A stretch of 63,947 nt of DNA, the filler included, from Folioceros fuciformis (lineage: Eukaryota), in the NCBI GenBank assembly GCA_049999805.1. It is 12 parts of 12 records of this genome, joined end to end, with 100 filler letters (N's around TTAATTAATTAA, not from the genome) between each part and the next. Parts side by side here need not be neighbours in the genome. Positions count along the whole stretch, not along the records: positions 29,073 to 40,633 come from JBNGIO010006066.1; 11 more parts are not named here. One strand, 5' to 3'. A program made the position numbers and the translations under genes. Each line of letters begins with the position of its first letter. Within the stretch, counting starts at the first letter, position 1. Positions 1 through 47,005 of this stretch are shown one piece after another. The notes beneath the pieces are model-generated. The model saw only the letters and a list, made by a program, of their open reading frames with translations. It was not told the DNA's origin and made no database searches.

Positions 1-3000
1 AGCTTGCACACATGATTTGGATGATCCAAATCCTCATATCCTGGTGGCTGGTCCATGTATACTTCTTCCAGCAATTCTCCATGTAAAAACGCATTCTTCA
101 CATCCATATGATGTAGGACCCAACCTTTCGATGCCGCTAGTGCGATCACGGTTCGAATTGTTGCCATTTTGGCAACTGGACTGAACGTCTCCTCAAAATC
201 TATTCCATATGTCTGGGCATATCCCTTGGCCACAAGCCTTGCCTTGTACCTGTTGATACTACCATCTGCGTTGTGTTTGACCTTGTACACCCATTTGCAA
301 CCTATTGGTTTCTTGCCTTCAGGTAGTTGTACTAGGTCCCATGTTGCATTCTGATTTAACGCATTCATTTCTTCATCCATAGCATGTTCCCACTTTGTGT
401 CTCCAATAGCTTCTTCAAAGCTTCTTGGTTCCACATCCTGTACAACCTTTGCCATATAGGCATGGTGCTTAGCTACATAGCTATCATAGGTCAACCGCTG
501 TATTGGAACCTTCTGCCTTCCAGATCTCCGTGGGATTGAACCACTTCCAGGGGCTGATTGAACCTCTTTTGCACCAGGTGTTTCGATTTTCGGTACACCG
601 AATTCCTCATCCAAGCTCTGCTCAGAGTCGCTTACATCATCCGCACCTGCACTTAGGTCTGGTATCTTTGAATCCTGGACTTTTTCCTTCCCTTTGCGAG
701 ACACAGCTGTGGAGCTCGTAGGACTCACACTACCTCGCAACCTGCCACTCCATGGATTCTGAACATTTGTCGAGTTTGATGACGCTTGCGGTCCACTCAA
801 CACTTGTGATTGTTGACCTGCATTGCTTGTTACCTCAGTTTCAAGCACATCAGCTACACTACTTCCTTGTACTTCAAAGTACCAGCTACCCATTTCATCA
901 AAGACTACGTCTCTGCTTACTCTCATAGTCCGTGTACTGGGATTGTAGCACCTGTATCCTTTCTGTGTAACAGAATACCCAATGAAGACACACTTTTCTG
1001 CTTTTGGATCAAGCTTAGTCCGCAACTCATCCGGAATATGGACATAAGCAATGCAACCAAATACCTTTAAGTGTGACAAGTCAGGTTTCTTCCCTGTGAA
1101 CTTCTCCTCCGGTGTTACACTGTGCACCGCTGCTGTGGGAGTTCTGTTCATGATGTACACTGCTGTGCTTACAGCTTCAGCCCAATAGTAGTGAGGCATC
1201 TTCTTCTCTGTCATCAAGGCTCTCGCCACTTCTGCTATGTGCCTGTTCTTGCGCTCTGCAACTCCATTTTGTTGTGGCGTATAACGACATGAGTACTGCC
1301 GTTGAATGCCCTGTTCTGATAAGAATTTGCTGAACTCTCTGGAGAAGTACTCTCCCCCTCCATCAGATCTTAGGCATTTGATGTGCCTACCTGTCTGCTT
1401 CTCAACCATCGCCTTGAAAGTATGAAAATGAGTGATCACTTCACTTTTTTCTTTCATGAAATAGACCCACACCTTCCTTGTGTGGTCGTCAATGAAGGTC
1501 ACATAGTACTTGCAGCCTCCGATTGATGCAGTCTGTGTAGGACCCCATACATCTGAATGCACGACATCCAACACATATCTGCTGACATGTTTGTCATGGG
1601 GGAACGCATTCCTAGGCTGTTTCCCAAGTTGACATGCTTCACATATACCTTGCAGTCCATTTTCTGTAAGCTTGGGTATGCCTGTGACAACCTTCTGATG
1701 CTGCATGGACTTCAACTTCTGCACATTTACATGTCCAATGCGTTTGTGCCACATCTCTAGGTCTGTCACTACCCTTGTACCCTTCGCAAACATGGCTGAC
1801 TTCAGCTTAGGAACCTCCACGTTCAAGGTGAACATCCGTCCAACCTTCTGTCCTTGAGCAATCAGGCGACCACCTTTCTTGCACTCTTCAACAAAGAGTC
1901 CTGCAGGTGTAAATCTAACCTGCAGTCCTTGCTCAACCATCTGCCCAACTGACACCAAGTTCTTTGTGATGTTGGGTACGTGAAGAACATCTACCAGGCA
2001 CTTCACTTTGCCATCCTGCATCTTCACAGGTACAGTTCCTGTATGCACAATTGCATGTGTTGTGTCATCTCCAGTTTCTACATATCCAGGTTTGTCAAGC
2101 ACTTGCATTTCTTTGAACCACTCCCCATGGCATGTCATGTGGTTCGAAGCTCCTGAGTCCACATACCACACAATCTCACCATTGTTGGATCCATTAGCAG
2201 ACATAGAGTTAAGCATATGCTGCATGACAAACAAGTTTTCTGAGTCATTCTGACTGCTGCTAGAGGCATAATTGTTCTGCTGCCTCCTGTTGCCTTGATT
2301 TCTCCTTGGACAGTCTCTTTCGAAGTGGTCTAACCTACCACAAGTCCAGCAACCACTATTGTCTGCATTTGCATCATTTTGTTGTTGATTTCCACGTCCT
2401 CTTTGACTCCCCTAGCCTCGAGAATTTTCTCCTCTTCCACGTGTACTCTTGTACTGGGACTCCTGATTCTGTTGTTGATTTTGGTAGGGATTCCGACCTC
2501 TACCACCTCTTTGCCCTCTGCCACCTTGGGCTCTACCTCTGCCTCTGCCAGAGTAGAAGGCCTGCTCAGAGTTTTCCTTAGGCTTAGAGGATGATTCCTC
2601 GCCTAGGTTTTTCTCCTCTATGATCAACATAGAAATCAGGTCTGAGAAATTGGGAATGTTTTCCCGAGTCTGTATGGAAGTCTTGAACTGCTTGTAGGCA
2701 GGTGTTAACCCGCGCAAGCAAACTTCGACCTTGTCATCATCTTCCACACTGACACCAATGGACGCAAGGGATTCCACTATCCCTTTGATCTTTAATGCGT
2801 ACTCATTGATTGATAAGTTCTTCTTCATAACTGTGTTGAAGTCATTCTTCAACTGCAGTTTTCTCGCCTTCGTGTTAGTCTCATAGAGTTTTACCAACTC
2901 ATCCCATGCTTCTTTGGGCGACTCTGCATCCTGTATGTGCCCAATCATGGTGTCATGAATGCTGATTGACAGCCAATACATGACCTTCCGAGATCCTTGA

Positions 3001-3197
3001 CTCCAATCCTTCAGCGCCTTAATCTGCTCCGCTGTTGCATTCCGTTCAAGTACTACAAGGGGTTTTTCATGCTCCCCCTCAATGTAGTCCCAATAACCCT
3101 TTCCCATAAGAAAGTTTGTAAAACGAAACTTCCAGGCATGGAAGTTGTTTTTGTCCAGCTTCTCCTGTACGATCTGGTTAATACTGTCACTGGCCAT
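1..3197 (-). pseudogene. copia A gag-pol with one premature stop
   Basis: ATG at 3197; TAG at 2412-2414 where the other copies read TGG; the frame continues to the window edge. Confidence 0.85.
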
Positions 3198-3748
3198 TCT
3201 TGCCACCACTCAAGGTTGACACTCAATCCTTTCTTGAGTACTCACACTTGATAAATGTCTGAAAGAACCAAACTGCTTCTGACTGGAGTTTTACTCACAA
3301 GACCTTAAGTCTCTTCTTCCTAAGAGCAATCTAGTGCGGAATCACGCTGCCTTGCGTGAACCAGATTGTCTCATGCTCCGTGTCCTTACAGACTCTTGAC
3401 TGTCTGCCCACAAAGCTCCCGCGAGATTTCCTGTCAATTCCTTCCCTGCTGCCAAGCTAGGGTTAGCACACTTTCTTGCAGCTGCTGAGGCTATTGCAGC
3501 TGTTGCCTCCACTTGTCAGCCCTTCCACAGAGCTCTGGGGATCAACAGCTAGTCCAGTAAGCTGACAGGGCCTTGTCGCCCTTCTCCTCACTTCCTGCAC
3601 ACACCGATATGAGAGTTAGCTGCCGGGACGCTTGCTGCCGATCTCCCTCCAAGCTGCTCCAACTTCTCGTAGCTGCTCTAGCTTCTGGTGTGCACTCTTG
3701 CTGCCTCTTGCAGCACCTCCTACGCCGATCTTGCACCGCCTGCACCGG

Positions 3749-3760
3749 GCTCTGATACCA
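3749..3760 (-). promoter_or_regulatory. Primer-binding site (tRNA-iMet) of copia A
   Basis: Minus strand TGGTATCAGAGC directly after the LTR. Confidence 0.92.
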
Positions 3761-4058
3761 TGTCAATAGGATCGACTCCAATCTACGTGCAAGTGTAGGA
3801 GAGGAGAGGAGAGGAGAGAAGAGAGGGTGGTATTGGTGATCACAACCATGAAAACAATACACATCACCGCTGTCTTACTATGGAGGTCCGAGGTCTCCAT
3901 TTAAGTAGTACATTTAGGGCTACACAACTTCCAGGTTCAATATGGGATAATCTACACTATCCTAAGTTCACTAATAACTAGAACTAGTCTAGTATGAACC
4001 CAACTGGGATAACTAACACCACATGAGTTTAGCTCATATAGAGCTCGATAACTCAACA
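3761..4058 (-). repeat. 5' LTR of copia A (298 bp, TGTTGA...TTGACA)
   Basis: TG...CA ends; right edge fixed by resumption of gypsy sequence (ctcttgacccaaatcc) matching the copy near 52610; left 20 bp repeated at 55470. Confidence 0.88.
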
Positions 4059-5060
4059 CTCTTGACCCAAATCCACCATCCTGACAATATGCCCTACTCC
4101 CTTGTAGGCTCTTGTACTGCTGGAAGTGCTACCTCCAGCACTACCGGATGTGTACCCGGGGGATGGTCCTGCTGTTTCTCCCCCATAGGGAGCTTTGCTC
4201 CACGAGACAAATGAAACTTCAGCAGGTCCTGTAGGTTTAGACCTAAAGGTCACACCTTTCCTGCCAAAATCAAACACACAAGCTGTCCCGTACAACCACG
4301 GTCTCCCAAGGAGCACCTTGTACCCTAGGTCAGACACTGGCCTCATGACAATGTAGGTTAGCTTGAACATGATCCCTCCCATCACCGTGGGCACATCCTT
4401 CAACACTCCTAGAGGCTTCCTCTTGGTCTGATCTGCCATCCGAAGGTACATGCGGATAGGGTCAAACTCCGTGAACCCCAAACGATGGGCTGTGTCCTCC
4501 GTCATGAGATTGACACCAGACCCCGTATCCAACGGTACATCCGGTACCAGACAACCTGCAATCTCCACCTCTATTTCAGGAGCTCCACAATCAGCCAACT
4601 CCACTGAACTCATCCAAGTAGGGACTGTCTTCCCTTCGAGTGGCTCCGGTATCCCTCGGATGGCTTCCTTGACGATCTTCCTGGCCTTGGGACTAACAGA
4701 CAAGAGCTGTCTCAAGCTCACCACAAACTCCTGGTCAAGCAACGCGTCAGCAAATCTAGCAACCTTCATGGCCAAAGCCTCCCTCGCTGTTGTTGTCTGA
4801 GGAGGATTGATCCCTCCATCCTCCTCGCTTCGATCAACCTTCTCTCCTTCCTGTTCCTTCTCCAAGGGACTTGCACTCTCCACCACCCCTGTCACAAGAG
4901 GGTCTGCAAACGTGACCTTCTTAGACCGGTGCATCAACCTAGTCAGCTCTTCCTCCAGCATTGCAGCAACCTCCTTGCTGATGTCGGGTGGGAATGCTGA
5001 TTCTTCAACCTCTCCTTCATCTAGTTCACCTTCCTCTCGATGAGGTGGATCAACCTCTTG
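4059..5060 (-). mobile_element. Ty3/gypsy gag-protease fragment, copy 1
   Basis: ORF 4053-4961 with retropepsin motifs PLDTGSGVNLM and VLLGRPWL; highly similar to about 51620-52625 on the opposite strand. Confidence 0.85.
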
Positions 5061-5160
5061 NNNNNNNNNNNNNNNNNNNNNNNNNNNNNNNNNNNNNNNN
5101 NNNNTTAATTAATTAANNNNNNNNNNNNNNNNNNNNNNNNNNNNNNNNNNNNNNNNNNNN
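5061..5160. other. Artificial contig linker (six-frame stop TTAATTAATTAA within 100 nt); also at 18214, 22087, 28973, 40634, 42474, 46473, 53376, 55490, 61459, 62742; plain 100-N gap at 5586-5685
   Basis: Identical N-padded linker repeated 11 times. Confidence 0.97.
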
Positions 5161-5772
5161 TAGAAATCATTAATTAATGTTCTTTAATATACATTTCAGA
5201 TGTAATTGATCAACATGTTGATTTAATCTGCATATTCATTTAATCAAAAAACGAGGTGCACCGAGGCATGAGGAAGGCTCTGGAGTGAAGGCAGAATCCC
5301 GGTGGCCGTTTGAGGCCACCTGCTGCCCGGAGTGCAGGAGGCTCCAGCAGTGCCTTGCTCAGGCTGTGGCAGCAATGGCGGCATCACGAGGCGCCGTGGG
5401 TGCCAGGCCGTGGGCTGTAGGCGATGTGGGCGCACCAGAGCGACGTAGCAAGCGCGGGCGGAAGGCGCCAGACCGTGGGGGCGTCGCCACGGGCACAGTG
5501 GGCTCGGACGCCGTGGGCGCCGCCGGCACCAGTCGTGAACGTGGGTGTCGAGCGCAATAGGTTAGGACGTGGGCGTGGGCGAATTNNNNNNNNNNNNNNN
5601 NNNNNNNNNNNNNNNNNNNNNNNNNNNNNNNNNNNNNNNNNNNNNNNNNNNNNNNNNNNNNNNNNNNNNNNNNNNNNNNNNNNNNGTCGTGAGGGTAACT
5701 TTCAGAGTCTATATTACATTTTCAATCGTTTTCTAACTAGCCTTTTTACTTGATGTGTATTGATTTTGAAAT

Positions 5773-11827: not shown

Positions 11828-12289
11828 CAGCCCGCAGCATGCGTGGATCCGCCCCTAGCAACGCCTACCTGCAACCCGGCCTGCCGATTCGGCCAGGCTC
11901 CCTACTACCAGCCATCAACCTTATTCATGCCGGCCAGGATTCGGCCCCGATCCGCTACCGTTAGCCCAGCTAGCCAATCAGCCAGGCTTCCCGGATCCGC
12001 CAGCAGCCAGTCTGCTCATCGACAAGCCAGGCCGCCTGCCATGGTTGCCTGGATCCCGCCATCTCGACCCCGTCCAATCTTAGCGATCCGGCCGGGCTTG
12101 GATTCACCTGCCAGCCTGCCAGGTCGGCCTAGCTATCTGGCTGAATTTCCCCTGAAGCTGGTCTACCTGCCGACCAACCAGGCCGCCCGCAAGCTAGCCT
12201 CCTCTGCCCGGCCTCGACCAGCCTACCTGCCTCCACCGGATCTCGCCCCCTGCCAGTATCCGACCAGCCCATCACGGCGATTCGGCGTC

Positions 12290-12579
12290 GGCCGCTTGCC
12301 AGCCAGCCTGCTGCCGTCCTGGCTTCCTGGTTCCGCCTGGCCGGCCAATGCCAGGATTTGCCTGCCTGGACTCCAGCAACTGGGCCTGCGCGCTGCTGGG
12401 GCGCATGCCCGCCCTCAGCAGTTGGGCCGCTTGCCAGCCAGCCTGCTGCTATCCTGGCTTCCTGGTTCCGCCTGCTTGGCCGGCCAATGCCAGGATTTGC
12501 CTGCCTGGACTCCAGCAACCGGGCCTGCGCGCTGCTGGGGCGCATGCCCGCCCTCAGCAGTTGGGCCGCTTGCCAGCCA
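12290..12579. repeat. Recent tandem duplication of about 135-139 bp (about 2.1 copies)
   Basis: ggccgcttgccagcca recurs at 12290, 12425 and 12564 with near-identical intervening sequence. Confidence 0.9.
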
Positions 12580-14421
12580 CTGCAAACCGCCTGGCCAGCC
12601 TGCTGGATCTCCAGCCGGGTCGCCTGCTTGACCCAGCATCGGCAAGCCCCAGCTAGCCCGCTTGCCGCTACTAGGCTGCCTACTACTGGGCCAGGCTGGC
12701 CTGCTGCTCCGGCCCTTTAGCAACCTCCCCGAGTTGTCTAGCCTCCATCTGATCGGGACTGGACAGCCACGATCAGCTGGCCTGACCGCTGCTGGTCCAG
12801 TGCCGCCTGCATGCCTCCAGCCCAACCAGCACACCCAGGTCCACCCCGACTAGCCCGGCTAGCCGACCAGCCTGCCTTCCGGATCAGCTAGCCAAGCTGG
12901 CTGCAGGCCGGCTGATCCTGCTGCGCTCTAGGCTAGCCATCGACTCCTAGGTCTGGCTAGGCAGTCAGCCCGCGGGTCGCCTGCTTCCTAGATGCCGAGT
13001 CGCCTACCACCTAGTTGCCCGCTCCAGGATCAACCAGCCAGCCTGCCGTCGGCCTGGCCTTCGAATCCGCCAGCAACCAACCAGCCCCTGCCGATCGGCC
13101 CTGCATCCGGATCTGGCCAGGCAGCCCGCCCGCCGAGCTGCCTGCTGTTGGGCCGGGCTGGCCTGCTGTCTAGGTTCCTCAGCAGCCAACAGCCTCCAAC
13201 CGGCCCTCGGCCTCCTCCTGACTGCGCAGACCAATCAGCTCGATCAACCTGGATCCACCTCCGCCAGCCAGCCTACTTCCACCCGCCTAGCTAGTCTTTT
13301 GTTGGTTGGATTCAGCCGGAACCCCAGCCTGGACCCGACCCCGTGCTCAGCCTGGCCTGGACGCTCCTTAGACACAACATCACCCCCTTGCCCATCTCGC
13401 CTGCGCCAGGCAGCTGCTGCCTAGCTGGATCTATCTGCAAGTCACCTGCCGGCTGCCTTCCCACGCTGCCGACTCCTGCTCAAGATCCTGCAACCAAGTC
13501 ACTGCCTGGCTTTCAAGTCTCGCCACATTCATCCGGAGCCCTACCCCAGCCACCTTGTTGCCTGATTGGTTTTGAACCGCCTGGATCTAGTCGCCACCCG
13601 CCTAGCTTGGATTCAGCCGCTGCTGAGCCAGCCCAACCAGGTCCACCCCTGACAGCCGCCATGCGCTCCACCAGTCTTCCCAGCCCGGGTCCACTCCTAG
13701 CCTGGGTTCGGGCCTGATTTTCTCCCACCGGCCCAACTAGCCGCTTAGCCCTCCGGCCCGCTGAACCCGGCCACCTTTGCTCTCGTGACCCTTGCCTAGC
13801 CAATGCGCCATGAGCAAGGGCCCGTCGTCCCCGTCTTTTCTTTTCCCCCTGATCCCCGACTTGCCCTTCCCACGCATAGTCCTAGGCTTCCACACACATC
13901 CAGACGCCCTAGCCAAGGGGACTAGACCCGTGGCCTACCTACCACACATCCCACCAAACCCCTATCGACTCACCGTTAATCTAACCTAATCTTCTAACCA
14001 CTCCTCAACGAATTTCAATCAGAAAACCAACCCAAAAAAACAAACTCTGCCATTTCCTAGGGGATTTGCTCGTCATGTGGACTCCATAGGGAGCCAAGAA
14101 TAGCCAGGGAAGGAAAACGTGCCATAGACACGCATGCGATGGGAGGAGGGGGGCCTTTGTCTTTATGGAGTTTGTGACTGCCACTTCATCTCTACTAATG
14201 CCTTCATCCGTTTTCATACCAGTCCTGACCTCCTGCCTTTTTACCAACTTCATAGGGGTGGCGGCTGGATTTGGCAGACGATGCACCACCATGGAAGCCA
14301 TGAAGAGAGGAAGATAAAGCAAGCTTGATAGGAATAGCTTGCATGTGTTACGATATATAATCTGGGTTCAGGGTTATATATATATATATATATTTATATA
14401 TACATAAGTAATCGTAGCTGT

Positions 14422-32000: not shown

Positions 32001-32718
32001 GCATCTGATTCACATCGGATTCAACATGGCAGATGCGGATCATTCGTTGTATGTGTGCAAAAGTACAAAACGACTGGTCTTTGTGACCATTTATGTGCAT
32101 GATCTAATCATTGGAGGTAATCAGTTGGATCAAGTGGAGCAGATCAAGGAACTTCTACAACAAGAGTTCAAGATGGCGGACCTAGGTGAACTGAGGTTCT
32201 TTTTGGGCATTGAAATTATACGAACCAACACAGGCATTTGGCTGTCACAGCGGAAGTATGCGTCGGATGTACTAACTAAGTATGGTATGGTTGAGTGCAA
32301 GCCAATCTCGATTCCTTTGGATCAAAATCTAAAGCTCAGTGCTCATGATGGTGAAGCACTTGAAGATCCAACAATGTACAGGAAGATTGTGGGTAGCTTG
32401 ATATATCTCACTCTATCCCGACCAGATTTGAACTATACAGTGGGATTGCAAAGTCAGTTTATGCAGGCGCCAAGAAAGCCACATTTGGATGCAGTAAGGC
32501 GAACGTTGTGCTATGTGAAGGCAACTATGGATCATGCTCTCTTTTATGTTGCAGATTTAGAAATAAACCTGTGTGGATACACAGATGCAGATTGGGCAGG
32601 CAGTGTTACTGATCGTAGATCTACAAGTGGATTCACTTTTTCACTTGGGAGTGCAGCAATTACATGGAGTAGCAAGAAGCAGCCTACAGTGGCTTTGTCT
32701 AGTACAGAAGCTGAATAC
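29073..32718 (+). mobile_element. copia A copy 2 (gag to mid RNase H), pseudogenised and 3' truncated
   Basis: Near-identical to 1-2860; 4-bp insertion at 30133-30136, CAG>TAG at 31588, YVDD>YVHD; homology stops after STEAEY. Confidence 0.94.
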
Positions 32719-34598
32719 AACCTATTCTCTCCTAAACAAAACCATTCACATCCTCGTGCCCGAGCCGGAATTGAAACCCGGGTTTTTGTAGGAATTGGAA
32801 CCGGGTTTTTGCGGGTTTTTGCTAAGCAGTGGCAAGTGAAGGTGGCTTCAATAGAAGAACTAGCCAGGGGAAGTCTGGTGTGGGGGACTTCGGTTGCAAT
32901 GCGCTAGAACAGTACTACCCCAGCTAATGGCCGTCATGGCAGGGTCACAAGCAGGGCGCCAATGGAATCCAGGCGGGAACCAGGGGCTCAAGCAGCCAAG
33001 CTGCAAAGGTCGGGTTCAGGTTAGAACCAAGCAGATGGTGGCTGGCTGAGGCGGAAGGACCCATCTCAACCGTCGGACCCCTAAAAAGTGGACATGGGGA
33101 GTGGAAACAACTCGAGTCTGGCTTTGGTTCGAGTCTAGCTTCGAGCAAGGGGGTTACGGTGGCCTGGACGAGGGTTGGAGGCGAAGACTGCAAGGAGAAT
33201 GCGTGCGGACGAAACTGAGGGATACCACCCCATCCAGATATATGACATAAGTGGCATTCGGCTTTCCATCCGCTGGGCGGAAGGTCTAGTACAGGTGTGC
33301 TGCTAGTGGGTGAGAAGCCCAATGATGGTTATGTTGGAAGAATGGAGGAGGAACCTGAAGATGGAGGACTCTGAAGAATGCAGGATGGTCGGAAGGCAGG
33401 AGATAATCCCATCCGGGAGAGGAGAAGGGGGAAAGAGAAGCACCCATGATTTGTGGTAGTTGTGAGGGGTTGATGATTTTTGGGTAAAGGGCAGCTAACG
33501 GTGTCAAGGGGTAACGAGCAATTAGAAGCAGGGGTAGGTTAGAGTTAGGGTTCTTGGTTGGGGTTAGGTTTAGGTCAGACCTAGGTTAGGTCTAGGTCAG
33601 ACCTAGGTTAGGTCTAGGTCAGACCTAGGTTAGAGTTAGGTCAGACCTAGGTTAGGTTTAGGTCATACCTAGGTTAGGTCTAGGTCAGGCCTGGGTTAGG
33701 GTTAGGTCAAACCTAGGTTAGATTTAGGTCATACCTAGGTTAGGTTTATGTCAGATCCAGGTTAGGACAGACCCATATTAGGTTAGGTTTAGGTCATAAC
33801 TGGATGTAGGATGGTTTAGGTCAGAGAGAGAGATGGTTAGGTAGTTGACTCAGATTAACCCTAGCAGACAGAGATGAGGGCTAGGCAATATAAGAGGGCA
33901 GACCTGCCATTGAGAGGGGGGCTGTCTATGGTGCGATTTCCCTGGACCTTGTGTGCAGAACTCCTAGCTTAGGGCATTGAGCCAGTCGAGACTGAACCGA
34001 GGTCCTGATTTCCCTTGCCACTAGGGGAACGTGGAGGATCCCAAGACTACCAAGATCCATGTGGCCGGATCCGCAAGGGCTGAATGATTCGCAGGCTGGC
34101 TAAAGTGAAGGGACAGACCGTGAGCCAAGAGGGCTATCCAGTCCTAGTATGCACACTACACTTGAAGGCTGCAAGGAGTGAGTCGTTGTGTCCCAATTTC
34201 CAGGGGATAACTGAAGCAAAGAGAGGAAGAGTTGGAGTGAAGTGCATAGAAGTGAAGAGTGAGTTGCTGAGGTGCAGGAGTGTGTGCTAAAGTGATAGGT
34301 GAAGGGCTGAAGTGAAGGAGGAAGGACTGAAGTGGGAATCATGAGGAGCTGAAAGATTGAAGATCTGAAGTGCGAGTTGTGTGAGCTAAGTTGAAGATAG
34401 GCTAGGCTTCTAGCCTCTTTGTTGTGTGTGTGTGTGTTCAAGCCTATAAACTAGCGGATAGGTAGAAGTGTGAGTAGATAGCTGTAGGTGTGCCTTGACA
34501 CTAGTTTATTTCCTTGGGAGCGAACCCTAAAGGCTGCAACTACAATAAGGGGAGGTGTGGCCCTTTGGTGGTTCTTTGGCGCAAGAAATCACTCCACA
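32719..34598 (+). repeat. 3' portion of long LTR (ends AAGAAATCACTCCACA)
   Basis: 34200-34598 aligns with 46573-47005 up to the shared CTCCACA end; TATA-like ATATAAG at about 33888; no PBS follows. Confidence 0.7.
33530..33825. repeat. 22-bp minisatellite (TAGGTCAGACCTAGGTTAGGTC), about 9 copies plus degenerate flanks
   Basis: Period 22 from 33571. Confidence 0.9.
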
Positions 34599-36263
34599 GA
34601 TATCCACATGAAGATCAAATGTCGTCGAGCGGATTCTTTTCGCATGCGCTTTTCTTCGAACAACATTAAGGTAGTCCTCATCTTGCGCAACCCTCTCCAT
34701 CCGTTCAGCGTCTGTCTCTACTGTTCGGGGCGGCTCGTCGTCGAAAGTAGGCCCTTCAGCCTGCCGCCTCTGTTTCCGCCCAGCAGAAGCCTCGTTGACA
34801 GGCCTTCCGACCTGCTCTTCCTCTTCTAGGGTGAAGCTGCCACTGGAACACATCAGCTGTTACATCCAATGTCCACGACAGGAAACCAGACCAGACCAAA
34901 TTGCAGACCGATTAGCAAGATACGCACCTGTGGCTCTTTTTCGAGACCTCATAGGAGAGGTCGTGGCTGTCTTCTTCTGGCTACGCTACTACTGGGGCAC
35001 CGGTAGGCTGGCGCACCGTCTTCTACTTCTTCCTCGATGGCGTCACCTCAACGGGCGATTCCTCTTCTTCTTCCTGTTCATCGTGTGAGCCTCTTCCAGC
35101 ATCCAGTGCCTCAGTGGGGCTATCTTCGGTGGAGGAGTAACCACCCATCTCCTTCTCTTGGTGACTGCTCAGCTCCTCCACCTCACGCAGTTTGTCTTTC
35201 GACAGCTCTGGCTGCATGCGCGGCATCTCCACCGGCCTCTCCGTCACTCTTCTTGCGCTAACACCAAAATCTGCGAAGGTCGCAATTCGTTGGCGCTCTC
35301 TGGCGATCCTGGATTGCAAGGGCTCGGTTCTTCAGGACACAATCGGCACAGAATCGCGAGACAATTCAACAGAACTGTTCGCCTCCCTGTTACACCCACA
35401 AGATGCAAGTAATTAGGGTTTATGGTTTGCCGGGTTAATAAGCCTAAATAAGTAAGCAACAACAGCTGGGATAATTAATTGCTAGGTTAATAAACTGAAA
35501 TAAATGATTAAGCTAATCATATACTAACATCTTGCACATTCAGAACAATCTTTCAAAGCCGTTTTTAGCCACATCGGTTCACAGCGCCGCGGCACAGCTT
35601 TCGCAACATTGACTACAATCAAGCTGTGGCTATTGTAGTCATCGGTGATATGGCTTGGTGGGTGCCGTGTGCAAATGAAATTGATGTGTGTTTCGTCTTC
35701 CACGCCGTCAACAGATGCATAGAGAATCTACCCAGGCCTCCCTACCTCATCGTCCAACAAGCCTTGGAAACCGTTAATCCACAAAGCCATGAGCAGCACC
35801 CACGGCAAATTGTAGTCTTCTGGCTCCTCTTCGATCACTAAAAACCACTCTTTGTATGTGTTGAACTGTTTGGCAAGTGTATCTTCAAGTTTCTTTAGCT
35901 TCAAGCGCTCAACATAGTTGTATGCATTTGGAATATTGTGGTTCTGACTACCACCAGTGCTGCCACCCTGAGTGACATTCACAGGCACATGGTTAACATG
36001 AACCTCGCTAGCTTTGCTGTTCGAGGCACAGACGCTCCCTCCTGAATTGTCTTTCCTCAATGCGAGAGCTGTTGGCTGTGGTGTAACATCTCCTACTGTG
36101 ATCGCTGGTTGCCGCTGGTTTTCTCTCTCGATGATGGGCAAGATGCAACGTGAGCTAAAGCTTTTGCCCCCTGTCGCGGTTTCTTCGGCTTTGATGGTGC
36201 CTCCAATACTTCCATATCAATGGCCGCATTCAGTTGCTTGTTGCTTCGCCGGCTAGCTGCCAT
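34599..36263 (-). pseudogene. Decayed accessory gene divergent from the Sola-like transposase
   Basis: Chain of minus-strand ORF pieces (36263, 35728-36141, 35023-35319, 34599-34853) broken by stops; AT-rich probable intron at about 35387-35528; acidic/charged product. Confidence 0.5.
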
Positions 36264-36937
36264 CTTCGCCTGCGCGTGAGAGGAAGTGAACAAGAAAACT
36301 TCAGAAGACCAAAGCTGATGCAGAAGCACTGAGGAATGACTTAAGCATTCAACGAAAAGATTTGAAGTCAACTATGAAGTTGAATGTGTGTTGCCTGAAA
36401 TAGGCAGAGTGTTTGAACAACGTCCTCTGCATTTATGCCAGAACAATGATTAAAGGTGCCGTTCCCGACAAACAACAGCTACTTGATTTGATGATCAAAC
36501 GTTCATATCGAAAAGGCGGCTTAATTATGCCAGCGTAACCTGTATTCAATGAATCGATGAGTGACGGTAGAATGCATCCTGCAAGGAAGCTCCTTTGCGG
36601 TTAATGAGTGCGACAATGGCATGGATTGGCAGGCTTCTTCCTCAGGCGACATGGTGCCTACGAAAACATCGGAGTTCAATTCTCAAGGTAGGCGACGACT
36701 ACGGTTGAAGATGGGCATTAGGTTGTTGAAGTTGAAAGTCTGATCTTCTCTGTTTGCGTCTTGTTGCTTTGTTCCCAATGATTCAGAAGGAATCGACATC
36801 GGCTTCCGACCGTCTCCTGTACGTCTGAGTCTTCTGGATGGCATCCATACTCCGGAAAGCCCATTGCGACCCAGTAGCCTTTCACGCTAGCAACTAGGAA
36901 AACAACACCTCTAAAGCGAAATGCGGATCTCACTATC

Positions 36938-39655
36938 TTGGACGGGGACTTTGATGAGTTGGATGTAGAAGGAATTGCGAGTGGACACCGGGTCAGGAGA
37001 ATCGACCAGGGAGCGCTTCCAGCCCAAAGCCGAAGGAGGGGATGTCATGGCCGTAGACGCTGTCAGGACGACGGGCACATCGTCGTGAAAAACATACAAT
37101 TTGAAACCATCATCCGAGTCCTTGATTGAAGTTCCTGGAGATCATCGACGTAGTCGGAAGAAAAAAATCTCGACTGTACCTGAGAAAAAGTGCTCTCAGA
37201 TCCGCATTTCTGCAAATTACAGCAGACTATTGCAGACTATGTTGTGCAAAGCAGTGTCTTAGATCCTTATTTAAACCAGACTTTCAGGATTTGAGATACC
37301 GATTTCTAAACCTCTGCAGGACATAGCAAGAAATGTTTTTGCAGACCCTGTTTGATGTCAAGCGTACTTCGGATGGACGCTTGACAGCGATGGCTTTTCT
37401 CATTGGATCTGTTAAGATACGCTGTTGTCAAGACGCCTTTACACGAGTTTTCTGTATCGGTGTGAACAAGTACGAGGCAGCAAAAGAAAGAGCTTTGGAT
37501 AACATTATGTGGGTGGGCTCTGTCCATGCAGAAAAAGCGCACCCGGGACCACGCTATGGTTGCATGTGTTTGGATGGATCAATTATTTTGCCTCCTTGCA
37601 GAACGCATGCCAAACATTGAAATGTACCATCTTCCCGACTCGTACACAAAAGAGGAAATTTTTATGGAGTACAAGCAGCAAATGCAACGAGCAGAACAGT
37701 ACAGTGTGTCTTACTCTTATTTCTGTCAATTGTGGGCTTCACATTTCTACAAGGTGCGAATTCTGAAGACCAACAGGTTTTCACTCTATACAACCTGCAA
37801 TTACTTGAAAAGGAACATCAGAGCCGAGTCTGATAAGAAGAAACAAGGTATGTGAGCCCGTTTTTTCAGTCACGTTTCATGTAGGCATTTGAAGTGCGCG
37901 GTCGACCAGCGCACTTCGCTCCATCCTTCCCTGATAAGTGCACCGGTTGACTGGCACACTTTTTCTTCCCATTGATGTTGAGAGAGCGCCGGTAGACCGG
38001 CGCACTCCCCCTGTTTCGCATCCTTCAGTTTTTCTTGTGACTGCGCATTGCTGGGTGTGCGCCAGTATACCGACGCACTGCTTCCACTCCTTCTCACGAA
38101 ATGTAGGGACTGACTGCTTTGTGGTAGGTGTGCGCCAGTCTACTGGCGCACACCCACCAGCTCACACACTTTTTCCTTATTCTCATGTGTAGGTTTTTAC
38201 TGTTTTTTGTAGAGGGCTTTGAATCTGACTTGAAGCTCCATCGTAATAGACTGAAGGCAAAGCGCGAGAAGAGTATCAAACATCGGGTCAAATGTTATGG
38301 TGACCCCGGAAAGTACATTGGAATATCAGTGGATGGTATGGATCAACATAAGACTCAGTTGCCCCATTTCGTACGAGTGCCCAAAGATTTGGTGGATGTT
38401 GGCCTCATTGATGTCCATGTAGTAAGGTGTATGGTATACAACAAGACTTTGACACCAAAGCTCTTCATCGAGTTCGGCAACATTTGAAACGATGAGAACT
38501 TAACAATATCAATTATTCAGCGCATGATTCACGAGTACGAAGGCTTGCTTCCCGGAGTGCTATATTTGCAGCTAGACAACACGGCACGGGAGAACAAAAA
38601 TGCGTTGTTGTTTTCTTATTTGAATATGTTAGTGGAAAAGCGGGTTTTTTTGAAGATAAAAGACGGATTCCTGCTAGTAGGGCACACGCATGTTTAGATG
38701 TTTTCCAGGTTTCCAACGGCACTCGGTCGGAAGGAAGCTTTGACTTTACCAAAACTGATTGCAGTTATGCAGAGCGCGTATGCCCCCATGCCAAACGTTC
38801 AAGAGGTGAACGAGGTTCCAGACTTTAGAAAGTTTGTTTGGCCTATACCCTATGGGAAAGCAGGATATCAGAGTGTTGCAGCGGTTAATCAGCTGCATAA
38901 CATATCGTTTCAACACCAGTTTAAGATCACAAAAGAGAGTTGCGGAGATCGTGGACCTATTACAGTTATGAGAGGAAAATAATATTCCACTGATCAATAC
39001 TGGTCACCTGATGAAGGGATAGAACTCCTGAAAGTAGTTCCAGAGAGGAATATGAAAGCCGCTCCACTAATGCATCTGCAGGTGAGCAGTAGGAAACAAA
39101 AGGCTATTACGGACAATGTGCCAGGATATAATCTGTCGCAGATTCGATCAAGATTGGAGTTCAAATTACGCCAGCACTTAGGTCTGGGCGAAGACATCTG
39201 GTGGGATTCATTTTGGGCCGAGCAAGAGGCTATCGTTCAAATTATTAATTCGGCTGTAGAGCAAGACCTTGACTGGCCATGGCGATGGTATAATCGTGAC
39301 GAGGCAGAGTTGTTAAACCCCCCGTTACTCACAGATGCTTTGGTATTGGAAAACCCACGGATACGAGAAGTTCTTAGAAGAGATATGTATGTGGGGCCAT
39401 ATAGCAGAGATGCACACGTTCGAAACGATGTTGATAGCTTCAGTGGAGATGTATCAGAGATCAAAGCAGGGCACATGATTGATGTCCCATGCAAGACAGA
39501 CGTAGACAATAGGCCTTTTTGGATGCCAAAGTGCTGGACACACAGAAGGAAAATGACACTCAAAATATCACAGTCCATTGGTGGGTCACGAAATGTTCAG
39601 ATGCATTTGAAGGCCGATATGAAGAGGAGGTGATATTGCCAAATGAAGACCCTGC
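36938..39655 (+). pseudogene. Sola-like (DUF7869-like) DDE/D transposase, degenerate, with an intron at 37848-38212
   Basis: CCAKQC, CCQDAFTRVFCIG, ERMPN..YHLP, FCQLWASHF..NRFS, ISVDGMDQHKTQLPHF, LYLQLDNTARENKN, FLLVGHTHV*MFSRF; GT..AG phase-1 intron joins exons in frame; family assignment from remembered motifs; true start uncertain. Confidence 0.78.
37891..38159. repeat. Five spaced copies of a 22-bp palindrome (GTGCGCCGGTNNACCGGCGCAC) inside the transposase intron
   Basis: Copies start at 37894, 37938, 37984, 38057, 38130; dissimilar spacers of 23, 24, 51 and 51 nt. Confidence 0.85.
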
Positions 39656-40633
39656 TGTGGAGGCAAAACCCCGGGCACTGATTGCCAACGGGTTCCACCT
39701 TTAGTGGCCACACTTATCCCACAGTCGTTGAGACATTGGGTTTCGTTCCCACGAAGGAGTGATGGGGTTCCTTGCTGCTGTGAATGGAGGGTCGGACTTG
39801 ATTGACTCGATGATGGATTCGAGGGCTCCCCTCCAACTCCGATCAGGCGTAGGGCAGGCCTCGCTGTCCGGCGGTCAGCTGCACCTCTCTCGGTGCCCAC
39901 AAACTCACTCCACTCACTACAACGACCCTAACCTTTTAGATCTGCGACTTCCCTCACTCACTTCACTCACTCTCACTCTTGCACCAACACCAGCAACTAA
40001 CAATGACACCACTACCTTCTACACTTCCCTACTGACTCCTCCTACCCGGCAAGAGTCACTAGACTAACCCCAAAGAAAAGAAAGAAGGGAACACACTCCC
40101 CTCTTGGATATCTCCCCCCCACAACCTTACCAGACGCCATAAAACATGGCCGACCTACAGCACTTGTCCAAACAGGGAACAAGAGTGGACAGGTTGAGAG
40201 AAAGACACATCCTTTACAATCAAGAGCTAGGGGCAAGCCCCTACACCCTGGTCATTACACCCTGTGATCCTACCAGACACTATACAACTGGCAACACGCT
40301 GCCTGCGATCCTACTAGACACTGTACAGCCGGCAACATGCTGCTTGCGATCCTACCAGACATTGTACAGCCGGCAACACGCGACTTGCGATCCTACCATA
40401 CGTTGCACAGTCGGTAACACGCTGCCTGCGATCCTACCAGACACTGTACAGCCGGCAACACGCGGCTTGCGATCCTGCCAGACGTTGCACAGCCGGCAAC
40501 ACACTGCAGGTCCTAAACCAAGCAGGGACAGACCACAAGAGCTCATGAAGAGAGGACCTCCAAGAGCTCACGAAGAGATAGACTGACTCCCAAAGTGAAT
40601 GACTCCCTCCTCCTACAGGCTCACCTGATCTTA
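39656..40633 (-). repeat. 3' end of a related long LTR in opposite orientation, truncating the transposase
   Basis: Starts TGTGGAG on + (CTCCACA on -), shares GGCCACAC and CTCACTTCACTC-rich tracts with the reverse complement of 34200-34598. Confidence 0.6.
40261..40505. repeat. 41-bp minisatellite, 6 copies
   Basis: Unit like CCTGCGATCCTACCAGACACTGTACAGCCGGCAACACGCTG at 40261, 40302, 40343, 40384, 40425, 40466. Confidence 0.92.
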
Positions 40634-40733
40634 NNNNNNNNNNNNNNNNNNNNNNNNNNNNNNNNNNNNNNNNNNNNTTAATTAATTAANNNNNNNNNNN
40701 NNNNNNNNNNNNNNNNNNNNNNNNNNNNNNNNN

Positions 40734-42473
40734 GCACTCAACCATACCATACTTAGTTAGTACATCCGACGCATACTTCCGCTGTGACAGCCAAATGCCT
40801 GTGTTGGTTCGTATAATTTCAATGCCCAAAAAGAACCTCAGTTCACCTAGGTCCGCCATCTTGAACTCTTGTTGTAGAAGTTCCTTGATCTGCTCCACTT
40901 GATCCAACTGATTACCTCCAATGATTAGATCATCCACATAAATGGTCACAAAGACCAGTCGTTTTGTACTTTTGCACACATACAACGAATGATCCGCATC
41001 TGCCATGTTGAATCCGATGTGAATCAGATGCTGAGCAAGACGCTCATGCCAAGCCCTCGGGGCTTGCTTCAGTCCGTACAACGTTTTTTTCAGCTTGCAC
41101 ACATGATTTGGATGATCCAAATTCTCATATCCTGGTGGCTGGTCCATGTATACTTCTTCCAGCAATTCTCCATGTAAAAATGCATTCTTCACATCCATAT
41201 GATGTAGGACCCAACCTTTCGATGCCGCTAGTGCGATCACGGTTCGAATTGTTGCCATTTTGGCAACTGGACTGAACGTCTCCTCAAAATCTATTCCATA
41301 TGTCTGGGCATATCCCTTGGCCACAAGCCTTGCCTTGTACCTGTTGATACTACCATCTGCGTTGTGTTTGACCTTGTACACCCATTTGCAACCTATTGGT
41401 TTCTTGCCTTCAGGTAGTTGTACTAGGTCCCATGTTGCATTCTGATTTAACGCATTCATTTCTTCATCCATAGCATGTTCCCACTTTGTGTCTCCAATAG
41501 CTTCTTCAAAGCTTCTTGGTTCCACATCCTGTACAACCTTTGCCATATAGGCATGGTGCCTAGCTACATAGCTATCATAGGTCAACCGCTGTATTGGAAC
41601 CTTCTGCCTTCCAGATCTCCGTGGGATTGAACCACTTCCAGGGGCTGATTGAACCTCTTTTGCACCAGGTGTTTCGATTTTCGGTACACCGAATTCCTCA
41701 TCCAAGCTCTGCTCAGAGTCGCTTGAATCATCCGCACCTGCACTTAGGTCTGGTATCTTTGAATCCTGGACTTTTTCCTTCCCTTTGCGAGACACAGCTG
41801 TGGAGTTCGTAGGACTCACACGACCTCGCAACCTGCCACTCCATGGATTCTGAACATTTGTCGAGTTTGATGACGCTTGCGGTCCACTCAACACTTGTGA
41901 TTGTTGACCTGCATTGCTTGTTACCTCAGTTTCAAGCACATCAGCTACACTACTTCCTTGTACTTCAAAGTACCAGCTACCCATTTCATCAAAGACTACG
42001 TCTCTGCTTACTCTCATAGTCCGTGTACTGGGATTGTAGCACCTGTATCCTTTCTGTGTAACAGAATACCCAATGAAGACACACTTTTCTGCTTTTGGAT
42101 CAAGCTTAGTCCGCAACTCATCCGGAATATGGACATAAGCAATGCAACCAAATACCTTTAAGTGTGACAAGTCAGGTTTCTTCCCTGTGAACTTCTCCTC
42201 CGGTGTTACACTGTGCACCACTACTGTGGAAGTTCTGTTCATGATGTACACTGCTGTGCTTACAGCTTCAGCCCAATAGTAGTGAGGCATCTTCTTCTCT
42301 GTCATCAATGCTCTCGCCACTTCTGCTATGTGCCTGTTCTTGCGCTCTGCAACTCCATTTTGTTGTAGCGTATAACGACATGAGTACTGCCGTTGAATGC
42401 CCTGTTCTGATAAGAATTTGCTGAACTCTCTGGAGAAGTACTCTCCCCCTCCATCAGATCTTAGGCATTTGAT
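40734..42473 (-). mobile_element. copia A copy 3 (integrase-RT contig, frame open)
   Basis: Near-identical to copies 1 and 2; YVDD intact. Confidence 0.95.
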
Positions 42474-43389
42474 NNNNNNNNNNNNNNNNNNNNNNNNNNN
42501 NNNNNNNNNNNNNNNNNTTAATTAATTAANNNNNNNNNNNNNNNNNNNNNNNNNNNNNNNNNNNNNNNNNNNNAAGTCAAAGGCCACAGACAAGAAGTAG
42601 GACTGAGAGGGAACGGATGAATGATGCTTCTTCTTCAGAGCATCCAATATTATTGGAATAAGATAGATTTAGGAGGTACTCATGCACGATAGACTGTGGC
42701 CAGTGATTGGAAACATTCTATGATGCACTATGAGCCTCAAAATAGTGGATTATAGTTTGTTATGTTTAGATATGGATAGGGTGTGGTTTTTATAGATTTG
42801 GAAGCTCAGAAGCGTAGTTTCTATTTTGTACATGAATGAAACAACATTTTACAACTTCTGAAATGATAGAGTCCAATGGACATTTTTTGGGATTGTGATT
42901 TTAACTTCAAATGTATCAATTATGTGGTAATGAGAACACTAGTTTGGAGCATCATGAACTCTCACAACGATAACATAATAAACTTGCGCAACAATTGTTG
43001 CAATGCATGTGGTTTATGACAATGTCGGAAGATGGCTACACCGTGAATGTGCGTAATACATGAAAACATATGACAAGGGAGCAATATTGTAACGGGTGGA
43101 GGCCTCAGAGAATCGAAATAAAATATATGCCAAAGAAGTACTTAGGGAAAATAACATTTTGTAGGTGAAGATATGAAATAGTTTTATTCATAGCTTGTGG
43201 TAACACGTATAAGCATGCAATCTGCGTACAAGGTAGCATCCTTGGTTTGTCCATACTATAAAGAATAGGGCAACATGAACTTCAAACTTAGAAGTATTAC
43301 ATCTATGAACTATCTTCTAGCTTGAACCACCTTCAATGTGAATGATGTAATTCAAAATGAAACATACGGTATATATGTTTATTGCAATC

Positions 43390-46572: not shown

Positions 46573-47005
46573 AGGGGGGGAAGCTGAAGAAAAGAGAGGA
46601 AGAGTTGGAGTGAAATGCATAGAAGTGAAGAGTGAGCTGCTGAAGTGCAGAAGTGTGTGTTGAAGTGGAGGGTGGAGGACTGAAATGAAGAGGAAGGGAC
46701 TGGAGTGGGAATCTTGAAGAGCTGAGGTGAAGGAGAAAGTGGCTGAAGTGGGAATCAAGAAGAGCTGAAGGACTGAAGAATAGGAGTGTGAGTTGGGCGA
46801 GCTGACTTAGGGGGTAGGCTAGGCTTCTAGCCTTTTTTTTGTGAGTGTATGGACAGACCTATAGACCGGCTGATAGGTAGAAGTGTGATAGGTAGTGTTC
46901 CTTGGCACTAGTTCACTCCCTTGGGAGCGAACCATAGGCCTGCAACGACAATAGGGGAATGTGTGGCCCCTTGGGTGGTTCTTGGGTGCAAGAAATCACT
47001 CCACA
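46573..47005 (+). repeat. 3' end of long LTR (second copy)
   Basis: Aligns with 34200-34598; ends AAGAAATCACTCCACA. Confidence 0.75.

Follow-up and report, generated by a model that had tools for sequence, protein, structure and literature searches.

An array of decayed CpG-rich palindromes in a predicted intron of a DUF7869 transposase-like pseudogene from Folioceros fuciformis

Introduction

The DNA analysed here is a stretch of 63,947 nucleotides (nt) from Folioceros fuciformis (assembly GCA_049999805.1), called the window below, which reads as eukaryotic nuclear DNA. It includes one copy of a multi-copy element whose transposase-like gene contains the Pfam domain DUF7869, and an intron of this gene holds five copies of a CpG-rich palindrome. 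The question raised by this locus is whether such a set of palindromes has a function, or is something left behind by mutation. The first-pass annotation of the window favoured function. It took the spacers between the palindromes to be unrelated, argued that this does not fit plain tandem duplication, and suggested either binding sites for a dimeric protein encoded by the element, or RNA hairpins controlling splicing.

On the evidence presented here we lean, on balance, to the other answer. The array is probably an old and decayed minisatellite with a palindromic core, a mutational by-product in the intron of a transposon gene rather than something selected for protein binding or for an RNA role.

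The palindrome array

The repeated sequence is a palindrome of 10-2-10 architecture with the core consensus GTGCGCCGGT-NN-ACCGGCGCAC. Five copies lie in the same register and orientation between 37891 and 38159, and a further, dispersed copy is found upstream. The copies, which have no strand assigned, are as follows.

37891..37917 (core 37894-37914), unstranded: copy 1, with a 9-bp outer stem, a 1-nt bulge and an inner GGTCGACC palindrome; it lacks one base of the consensus
37938..37959, unstranded: copy 2, with three CpG transitions; pairing mostly lost
37984..38005, unstranded: copy 3, the nearest to the consensus, with one transversion
38057..38078, unstranded: copy 4, with two transitions, both unpaired
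38122..38159 (core 38130-38151), unstranded: copy 5, an 18-2-18 palindrome with one mismatch and a paired CCAGT/ACTGG change
34995..35016, unstranded: copy 6, a dispersed and decayed copy in non-coding DNA, 2.9 kb upstream

The start-to-start periods from copy 1 to copy 5 are 45, 46, 73 and 73 nt, with spacers of 23, 24, 51 and 51 nt. This is the arrangement that the first-pass annotation described, with the qualification that copy 1 fits only if a 1-nt gap is allowed. The palindromes are degenerate, with one to three mismatches each, and the repeats are 67-79% identical to copy 3. When both strands of the window were searched for the motif at up to 3 mismatches, four matches were obtained, all of them intronic; copy 1 was missed because of its 1-nt deletion. 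None of 100 dinucleotide shuffles gave any match at this threshold. Together with the low expectation for the sixth site given below, this marks the array as real and non-random.

The extended, copy-specific stems that had been reported are present in copies 1 and 5. The stem of copy 1 is GAAGTGCGC/GCGCACTTC, while that of copy 5 (TGGTAGGT.../...ACCCACCA) has 18-nt arms, 94% complementary, with 2 nt between them. The paired CCAGT/ACTGG change in copy 5 is also there, and is discussed further below.

The sixth copy matches the consensus at 16 of the 20 specified bases (four mismatches). Composition-preserving block shuffles, scored at up to 4 mismatches, give an expectation of 0.03 such sites per window, and we consider this copy to be probably real. 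At up to 5 mismatches it is the only motif site found outside the intron in the whole window. The region around it aligns to unit 4 (34992-35032 against 38051-38093), and the pyrimidine motif that follows it resembles the one after copy 4. The similarity of the flank alone has p=0.017, which is the best of five flank tests and would not survive correction. This site had been placed in a divergent accessory gene. The site stands, but the gene around it is unsupported: three minus-strand open reading frames (ORFs) gave no Pfam family, a 231-residue read-through of the region had no homologue among 203 candidates of 127-405 amino acids (aa), and the minus strand of the presumed gene is full of in-frame stops.

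Relationship between the spacers

Comparison of spacer against spacer had been named beforehand as the test on which the earlier interpretation depended, and in statistical terms the spacers do align as decayed tandem units. The local-alignment scores of the six inter-palindrome segments were summed, with gaps allowed, and compared with those of 1000 shuffles under three scoring schemes. The segments are collectively more alike than the shuffles in all three (p=0.013, <0.001 and <0.001). The spacer between copies 4 and 5 (s45) also resembles the 3' tail of the array (p=0.002, gapped alignment against shuffles). There is moreover an order in the matches. The spacer between copies 1 and 2 (s12, TTCG..CATCCTTC) matches the first part of the spacer between copies 3 and 4 (s34), and the spacer between copies 2 and 3 (s23, TTTTTCTT..CATTGMTG) matches its second part, so that the 73-nt unit can be described as two 45-nt units minus one palindrome.

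Units 4 and 5 have 41 nt in common at 78% identity, including 19 nt upstream of the core. Motifs similar to ATGTAGG, which resemble a splice site, recur at 37879-37885 (before copy 1), 38101-38107 (in s45) and 38185-38193 (after copy 5). Derived states also follow position within the array, CCAGT and an NT centre being common to copies 4 and 5, and an NG centre to copies 1-3. Taken together, the periods, the gapped similarity of the spacers, the ordered matches and the positional derived states point to old head-to-tail duplication followed by decay. The claim that unrelated spacers speak against plain tandem duplication thus fails.

A number of observations weigh on the other side. In ungapped, in-register comparison the sequences outside the cores match at close to the random level, except in the 19 nt upstream of copies 4 and 5; units 4 and 5, compared in register, agree at 19 of 22 core positions and at only about one third of the first 32 nt of spacer. 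When the five units are aligned, the 12 invariant columns are all within the palindrome, and the cores are better kept than the tails. The spacer lengths are equal (51/51 and 23/24) despite a nearly randomised in-register sequence, and the spacing is possibly constrained. Tandem Repeats Finder calls no array at the intron palindromes, and the tandem-unit reading therefore depends on similarity that is weak and gapped. The cores differ from the consensus by about 10%, which is similar to the difference between this copy of the element and other contigs of its family; at the time this copy inserted, its cores may still have been nearly identical and its tails already different. The sixth copy, which is 2.9 kb away in a different non-coding part of the element, is unexplained by plain local tandem duplication. 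Finally, the central dinucleotide shows 3 changes in 10 cells, against 8 in 80 for the arms, a difference that is not significant (Fisher p=0.10); a dimer site or a hairpin loop would be expected to show such a variable centre with kept arms.

Decay of the palindromes

Copies 2 to 5 carry eight substitutions relative to the consensus, of which seven are transitions. Six of the eight are at CpG positions, which account for 8 of the 20 specified positions (binomial p ~0.05 by our own arithmetic). Over the element as a whole, the observed/expected (o/e) ratio of CpG is 0.78 and that of TpG+CpA is 1.23, and C>T and G>A are the commonest differences among the family contigs.

The stability of each copy as a DNA hairpin was assessed by comparing its folding energy with 200 shuffles. 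Stable hairpins remain in three of the five intron copies: copy 1 (-11.8 kcal/mol, z -3.7), copy 3 (-11.8 kcal/mol, z -6.0) and copy 5 (-18.8 kcal/mol, z -6.0), for each of which 0/200 shuffles were as good. For copy 2 (-3.2 kcal/mol) 36/200 shuffles fold as well, and for copy 4 (-4.6 kcal/mol) 107/200 do, while copy 6 folds no better than shuffles. The pairing of the palindrome arms is not protected.

The paired change in copy 5 can be separated into two events. The G>A in the left arm is common to copy 4, and was presumably inherited by both copies from a shared ancestor; the C>T in the right arm is private to copy 5. By our own reasoning, such a CpG transition in the right arm would restore the pair about half of the time. 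The core of copy 5 is also followed by about 20 nt that are absent from unit 4, and the first 8 of these are complementary to the left flank of the copy. Template switching during replication would explain this extension, since it is described in PMC8794818 as yielding such stem extensions without selection.

On the basis of these observations we suggest how the minisatellite might have formed. The ancestral unit would have consisted of a long CpG-rich palindrome, a pyrimidine-rich tail and an ending similar to a 3' splice site (ATGTAGG). Head-to-tail copying, by replication slippage or unequal exchange, would have produced the periods of about 45 and 73 nt. In later drift, the T/C-rich tails would have gained indels and substitutions, and the cores would have undergone methyl-CpG deamination (C>T, G>A). 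A mutation of palindrome type, either template switching or local inverted duplication, could have extended the stem of copy 5 and generated its one 'compensating' change. The array, now in a dead copy of the element, would be without activity and would have no sequence-specific function.

If this explanation is right, the locus is an ordinary case of a transposon with an internal minisatellite. It would also mean that CpG decay and palindrome-specific mutation are able to mimic both a set of conserved repeats separated by unrelated spacers and changes of a compensatory kind.

The intron, its gene and the element

The array lies within the following features.

37126..37847 (+): coding part of the transposase-like pseudogene upstream of the intron; tblastn of six homologues covers 37159-37852, in frames 1 then 2
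37848..38212 (+): predicted GT..AG intron of 365 nt, phase 1, which holds the array; identified from its borders and the collinearity of homologues
38213..39633 (+): downstream coding part with the DUF7869 domain (Pfam PF25273); tblastn covers 38215-39635
34663..39655 (+): approximate extent of this copy of the multi-copy DUF7869 element, from contig depth; truncated at the 3' end

The borders of the intron are CAAG|GTATGT ... TTTTTTGTAG|AG. All six homologues tested by tblastn are collinear across the interruption, as in the case of P0002, whose residues 326 and 328 fall at 37852 and 38221 respectively, and removal of the 365 nt joins frame 2 to frame 1. Sequence features expected of a spliceosomal intron are found here, namely GT..AG ends, a pyrimidine tract, a restored frame and collinear homologues. 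Judged from the borders, the collinearity and the joining of frames, the 365-nt stretch is an intron or an exactly intron-like insertion, in agreement with the earlier description of the array as lying within an intron of a transposase-like gene. A sequencing run that we presume to be RNA (run X4; this is a guess) gave no contig cover over 34663-39524.

The gene itself is dead in this copy. In the upstream part the frame changes near 37461-37511, and a number of stops lie further upstream still. In the downstream part, where PF25273 is matched with E=1.4e-23 and 1.5e-09, there are three in-frame stops, ending at 38487, 38697 and 38982. The last 100-150 residues of the transposase are missing, and a very abundant repeat starts at 39656.

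A protein search gave 177 relatives at E<=0.001, the best of them 36-40% identical. The named best relatives are from a fern and a liverwort, while remoter ones come from many marine animals; dozens of DUF7869 paralogues are named from a single liverwort genome. A literature search under the names 'DUF7869' and 'PF25273' found no paper. The AlphaFold model of the fern homologue P0013 has a pLDDT of 73.9. Foldseek found no match to this model in the PDB at E<=0.001, and the weak top matches are all RNase-H-like: IstA (7.2e-3), RNase HI, TnsB and Mos1. A sequence search against the PDB returned one irrelevant weak match only. In 35 aligned sequences D326, D404 and a GHTH..D446 motif are invariant. 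Combined with the weak RNase-H-like matches, this pattern would fit a DDE-type transposase of no described superfamily, as far as can be judged from a predicted structure.

DUF7869 proteins elsewhere are found fused with zf-RVT, with a fragment of the Ulp1 peptidase C48, or with an OTU domain (P0022, P0051, P0101). Captured domains of this kind are typical of eukaryotic DNA transposons.

The extent and copy number of the element were assessed using contigs of at least 80% likeness from three DNA runs of one sample. Of six sequencing runs considered, two contained part of the stretch (0.34 and 0.30 of 212 words); these two share one sample and one study, and the sample is possibly the one behind the assembly of the window. 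The summed contig depth per 220-nt bin is 60-890 in the element, compared to 1,200-5,500 in the left flank and 4,000-255,000 in the right flank, and loose contig ends accumulate at 39656. Each position over 34663-39524 is covered by many distinct contigs (for example 18 at 37431), and the element is multi-copy. A contig of 296 nt that derives from a different family copy extends over 37922-38216 and shows 31 differences and 1 gap (about 89% identity). At least one other copy of the family therefore carries copies 2-5 in the same architecture, and the motif is not private to this copy, in agreement with the first-pass annotation.

Some contigs have joints that lie between palindromes (38007>38130, 38079>38248, 38152>37988 and 38019>37986). 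Their short sides measure only 21-22 nt and may be mis-laid diverged spacers, and for this reason they are not counted as proof that the number of units varies. No terminal inverted repeat was seen among 14 inverted-repeat pairs in 33800-40300; because this copy is truncated at 39656, the test is a weak one.

Alternative explanations

The alternative that survives best, although we think it unlikely, is that in the active ancestor the palindromes were sites for a dimeric DNA-binding protein that regulated transcription, silencing or transposition. The binder might have been an N-terminal domain of the transposase, another product of the element or a host factor, and its sites would have been amplified as tandem repeats. 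The 10-2-10 architecture with its variable centre and conserved arms is consistent with this, as are the better conservation of cores than of tails and the equality of the spacer lengths. The motif is limited in the window to this element, where it occurs in two non-coding parts (the intron and the site 2.9 kb upstream), and the array is present in another family copy. There is also a precedent in the VANC21 motifs, which are tandem repeats in non-coding regions of VANDAL21, according to PMC5735166 and PMC10398659. As PMC5735166 places tandem-repeated VANC21 targets in VANDAL21 introns, a tandem origin is compatible with binding.

Several results nevertheless stand against binding. The minus-strand ORFs that might have supplied an accessory protein have, as noted above, neither a Pfam family nor a homologue, and contain stops. 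In none of the six transposase homologues scanned was a DNA-binding domain identified beyond DUF7869. There are no motif sites near the right end, which is the sole visible boundary of the element, and no termini are defined. The VANC motif is short and set in a single orientation, whereas the one here is a palindrome of 22 nt. The substitutions all fit neutral CpG decay, though this would be expected in a dead copy in any case.

A more specific version, to which we give slightly less weight again, is that the palindromes are dimeric-protein sites of an uncharacterised DUF7869 superfamily, were amplified in the intron and the 5' non-coding DNA of the element itself, and might act as a methylation-sensitive CpG platform that senses or counters silencing. 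Were this true, an early-diverging lineage of land plants would have its own, palindromic equivalent of the VANC/VANDAL anti-silencing arrays. Binding would also provide the first cis element for DUF7869 transposons, which are widespread in animals, ferns and liverworts, and would extend sequence-specific regulation through intronic arrays beyond the Mutator-like elements of Arabidopsis.

It is improbable that the palindromes act at the RNA level, as hairpins in the pre-mRNA that shorten or mask the intron, modulate its splicing or retention, or feed small-RNA silencing as double-stranded RNA. The intron RNA does fold far better than shuffles (-136.4 kcal/mol, z -6.8 on the + strand), copy 5 forms a stem of 16-17 bp, and the splice-site-like ATGTAGG motifs recur in the units. 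However, the antisense strand folds better still (-152.1 kcal/mol, z -9.5). Any palindrome folds on both strands by construction, and these z-scores therefore say nothing about RNA function. Stems of this length are short for Dicer-type processing. Pairing has been lost in two of the five hairpins, and the sole compensating change is the one CpG transition in copy 5 discussed above. A search of Rfam found no family, the single match having 23.6 bits against a threshold of 80 bits (E=0.4).

[quoted passage not shown] It would account for cores that are much more alike than the in-register spacers, for the one dispersed copy 2.9 kb off, and for the resemblance of s34 to s12 and s23 joined with no palindrome in between, as though copy 2 had been inserted or deleted. 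Against this, a search allowing up to 5 mismatches found no further site in the remaining ~59 kb of the window, and no target-site duplications were seen around the cores. The depth of the bin at 37978-38198, which covers most of the array, is not raised but is about half that of the neighbouring bins, which argues against an independent high-copy element. On these two grounds, the lack of other sites in 64 kb and the lowered depth, the earlier view that the motif does not belong to an unrelated high-copy MITE is upheld. The regular periods and shared flanks fit duplication of a unit better. A scan of metagenomes for the palindrome gave single, unrelated matches only: 31 loci with one site each, of which none had a DUF7869 match by tblastn or homology to the element beyond the 22-mer. 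The 13 of the 31 that were inspected have AT-rich or T-run flanks and look like bacterial terminator hairpins.

Other candidates were rejected. A CRISPR array, which the first-pass annotation had also excluded, does not agree with a eukaryotic intron, degenerate repeats (with the range of identity to copy 3 given above) and related spacers. Helitron-end hairpins, geminivirus-like origins and excision footprints were dropped, their flanking signatures being missing from the intron sequence. The 5' splice site is complementary over 13 nt to 38160-38172, but by our own estimate this is at about chance level in 365 nt.

Comparison with known systems

The closest parallel is with VANDAL21, a Mutator-like element of Arabidopsis, in which short family-specific motifs are tandem-amplified in non-coding transposon DNA, introns included. 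In PMC5735166 and PMC10398659 the VANC21 targets are described as tandem repeats in introns, in intergenic DNA and in terminal non-coding stretches, with arrays that gain and lose repeats between copies. The VANC motif given there is the 9-nt non-palindromic YAGTATTAY, present in one orientation and at high density, and the binding of VANC21 was demonstrated by chromatin immunoprecipitation sequencing (ChIP-seq) and electrophoretic mobility shift assay (EMSA). The array described here differs in that its motif is a CpG-rich palindrome of 22 nt, its sites number five or six, and the element is of the DUF7869 type and not a Mutator-like element. Compared with VANC-type arrays its density is low: five sites lie in one intron and one upstream, and neither the rest of the element nor the rest of the window has any. 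The other ORFs of the element, which carry stops and have no Pfam family or homologue, yielded no VANC-like gene.

There is also some likeness to En/Spm (CACTA) elements, in which the subterminal repeats bound by TnpA are motifs of 12 nt that cluster at the element's ends. In both cases element-specific motifs, some of them as inverted pairs, are repeated in GC-rich non-coding DNA subject, presumably also here, to methylation. Here, the sites are internal and intronic, and the ends of the element are undefined.

The minisatellite explanation has parallels of its own. The foldback element Tetris of Drosophila virilis has head-to-tail repeats in non-coding transposon DNA which travel with the family, according to PMC4079207. 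The present array, in comparison, has five units, is old and heavily decayed, is intronic and not beside terminal repeats, and is built around a palindromic core; nothing indicates that it has seeded a satellite. Hairpins formed or repaired by template switching resemble the extended stem of copy 5, and can produce an apparent compensatory change without selection (PMC8794818). That work concerns RNA genes with reconstructed ancestors, whereas here the event is inferred from one copy. The likeness to CRISPR arrays, which lies in palindromic repeats of about 22 nt and near-constant spacers, is superficial. The present array differs in its eukaryotic nuclear intron, its degenerate repeats, its related spacers and its two periods, and there are no cas genes.

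Other features of the window

The repeat that truncates the 3' end of the transposase, at 39656-40600, is very abundant, with a contig depth 100-1000 times that of the DUF7869 element. Within it, at 40261-40507, there is a tandem repeat of 41/82 nt.

Further out, the sequences at 40734-41000 and 32032-32298 (267 nt) are 99.6% identical and inverted, so that two inverted pieces of one retroelement bracket the DUF7869 element. An open frame of 611 aa at 40686-42521 (-), cut by masked runs of N, is one that we take, by eye, to be a Ty1-copia-type polyprotein with integrase and reverse transcriptase.

To the left of the element, a repeat at 34203-34598 has a second copy 12 kb downstream, at 46577-47005, with 74% identity. 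The left copy has a depth of 1,200-5,500, and contigs of run X4 match there. A tandem repeat of 22/44 nt is present at 33562-33796, with 5-9 copies and 84-86% matches; it appears also in self-BLAST, and its unit is partly palindromic.

Two blocks of the window, at 12001-14000 and 48001-50000, are GC-rich (65-67% GC, compared to a background of ~46%). The first of these contains, at 12290-12579, a 139-nt tandem repeat with 2.1 copies at 95%.

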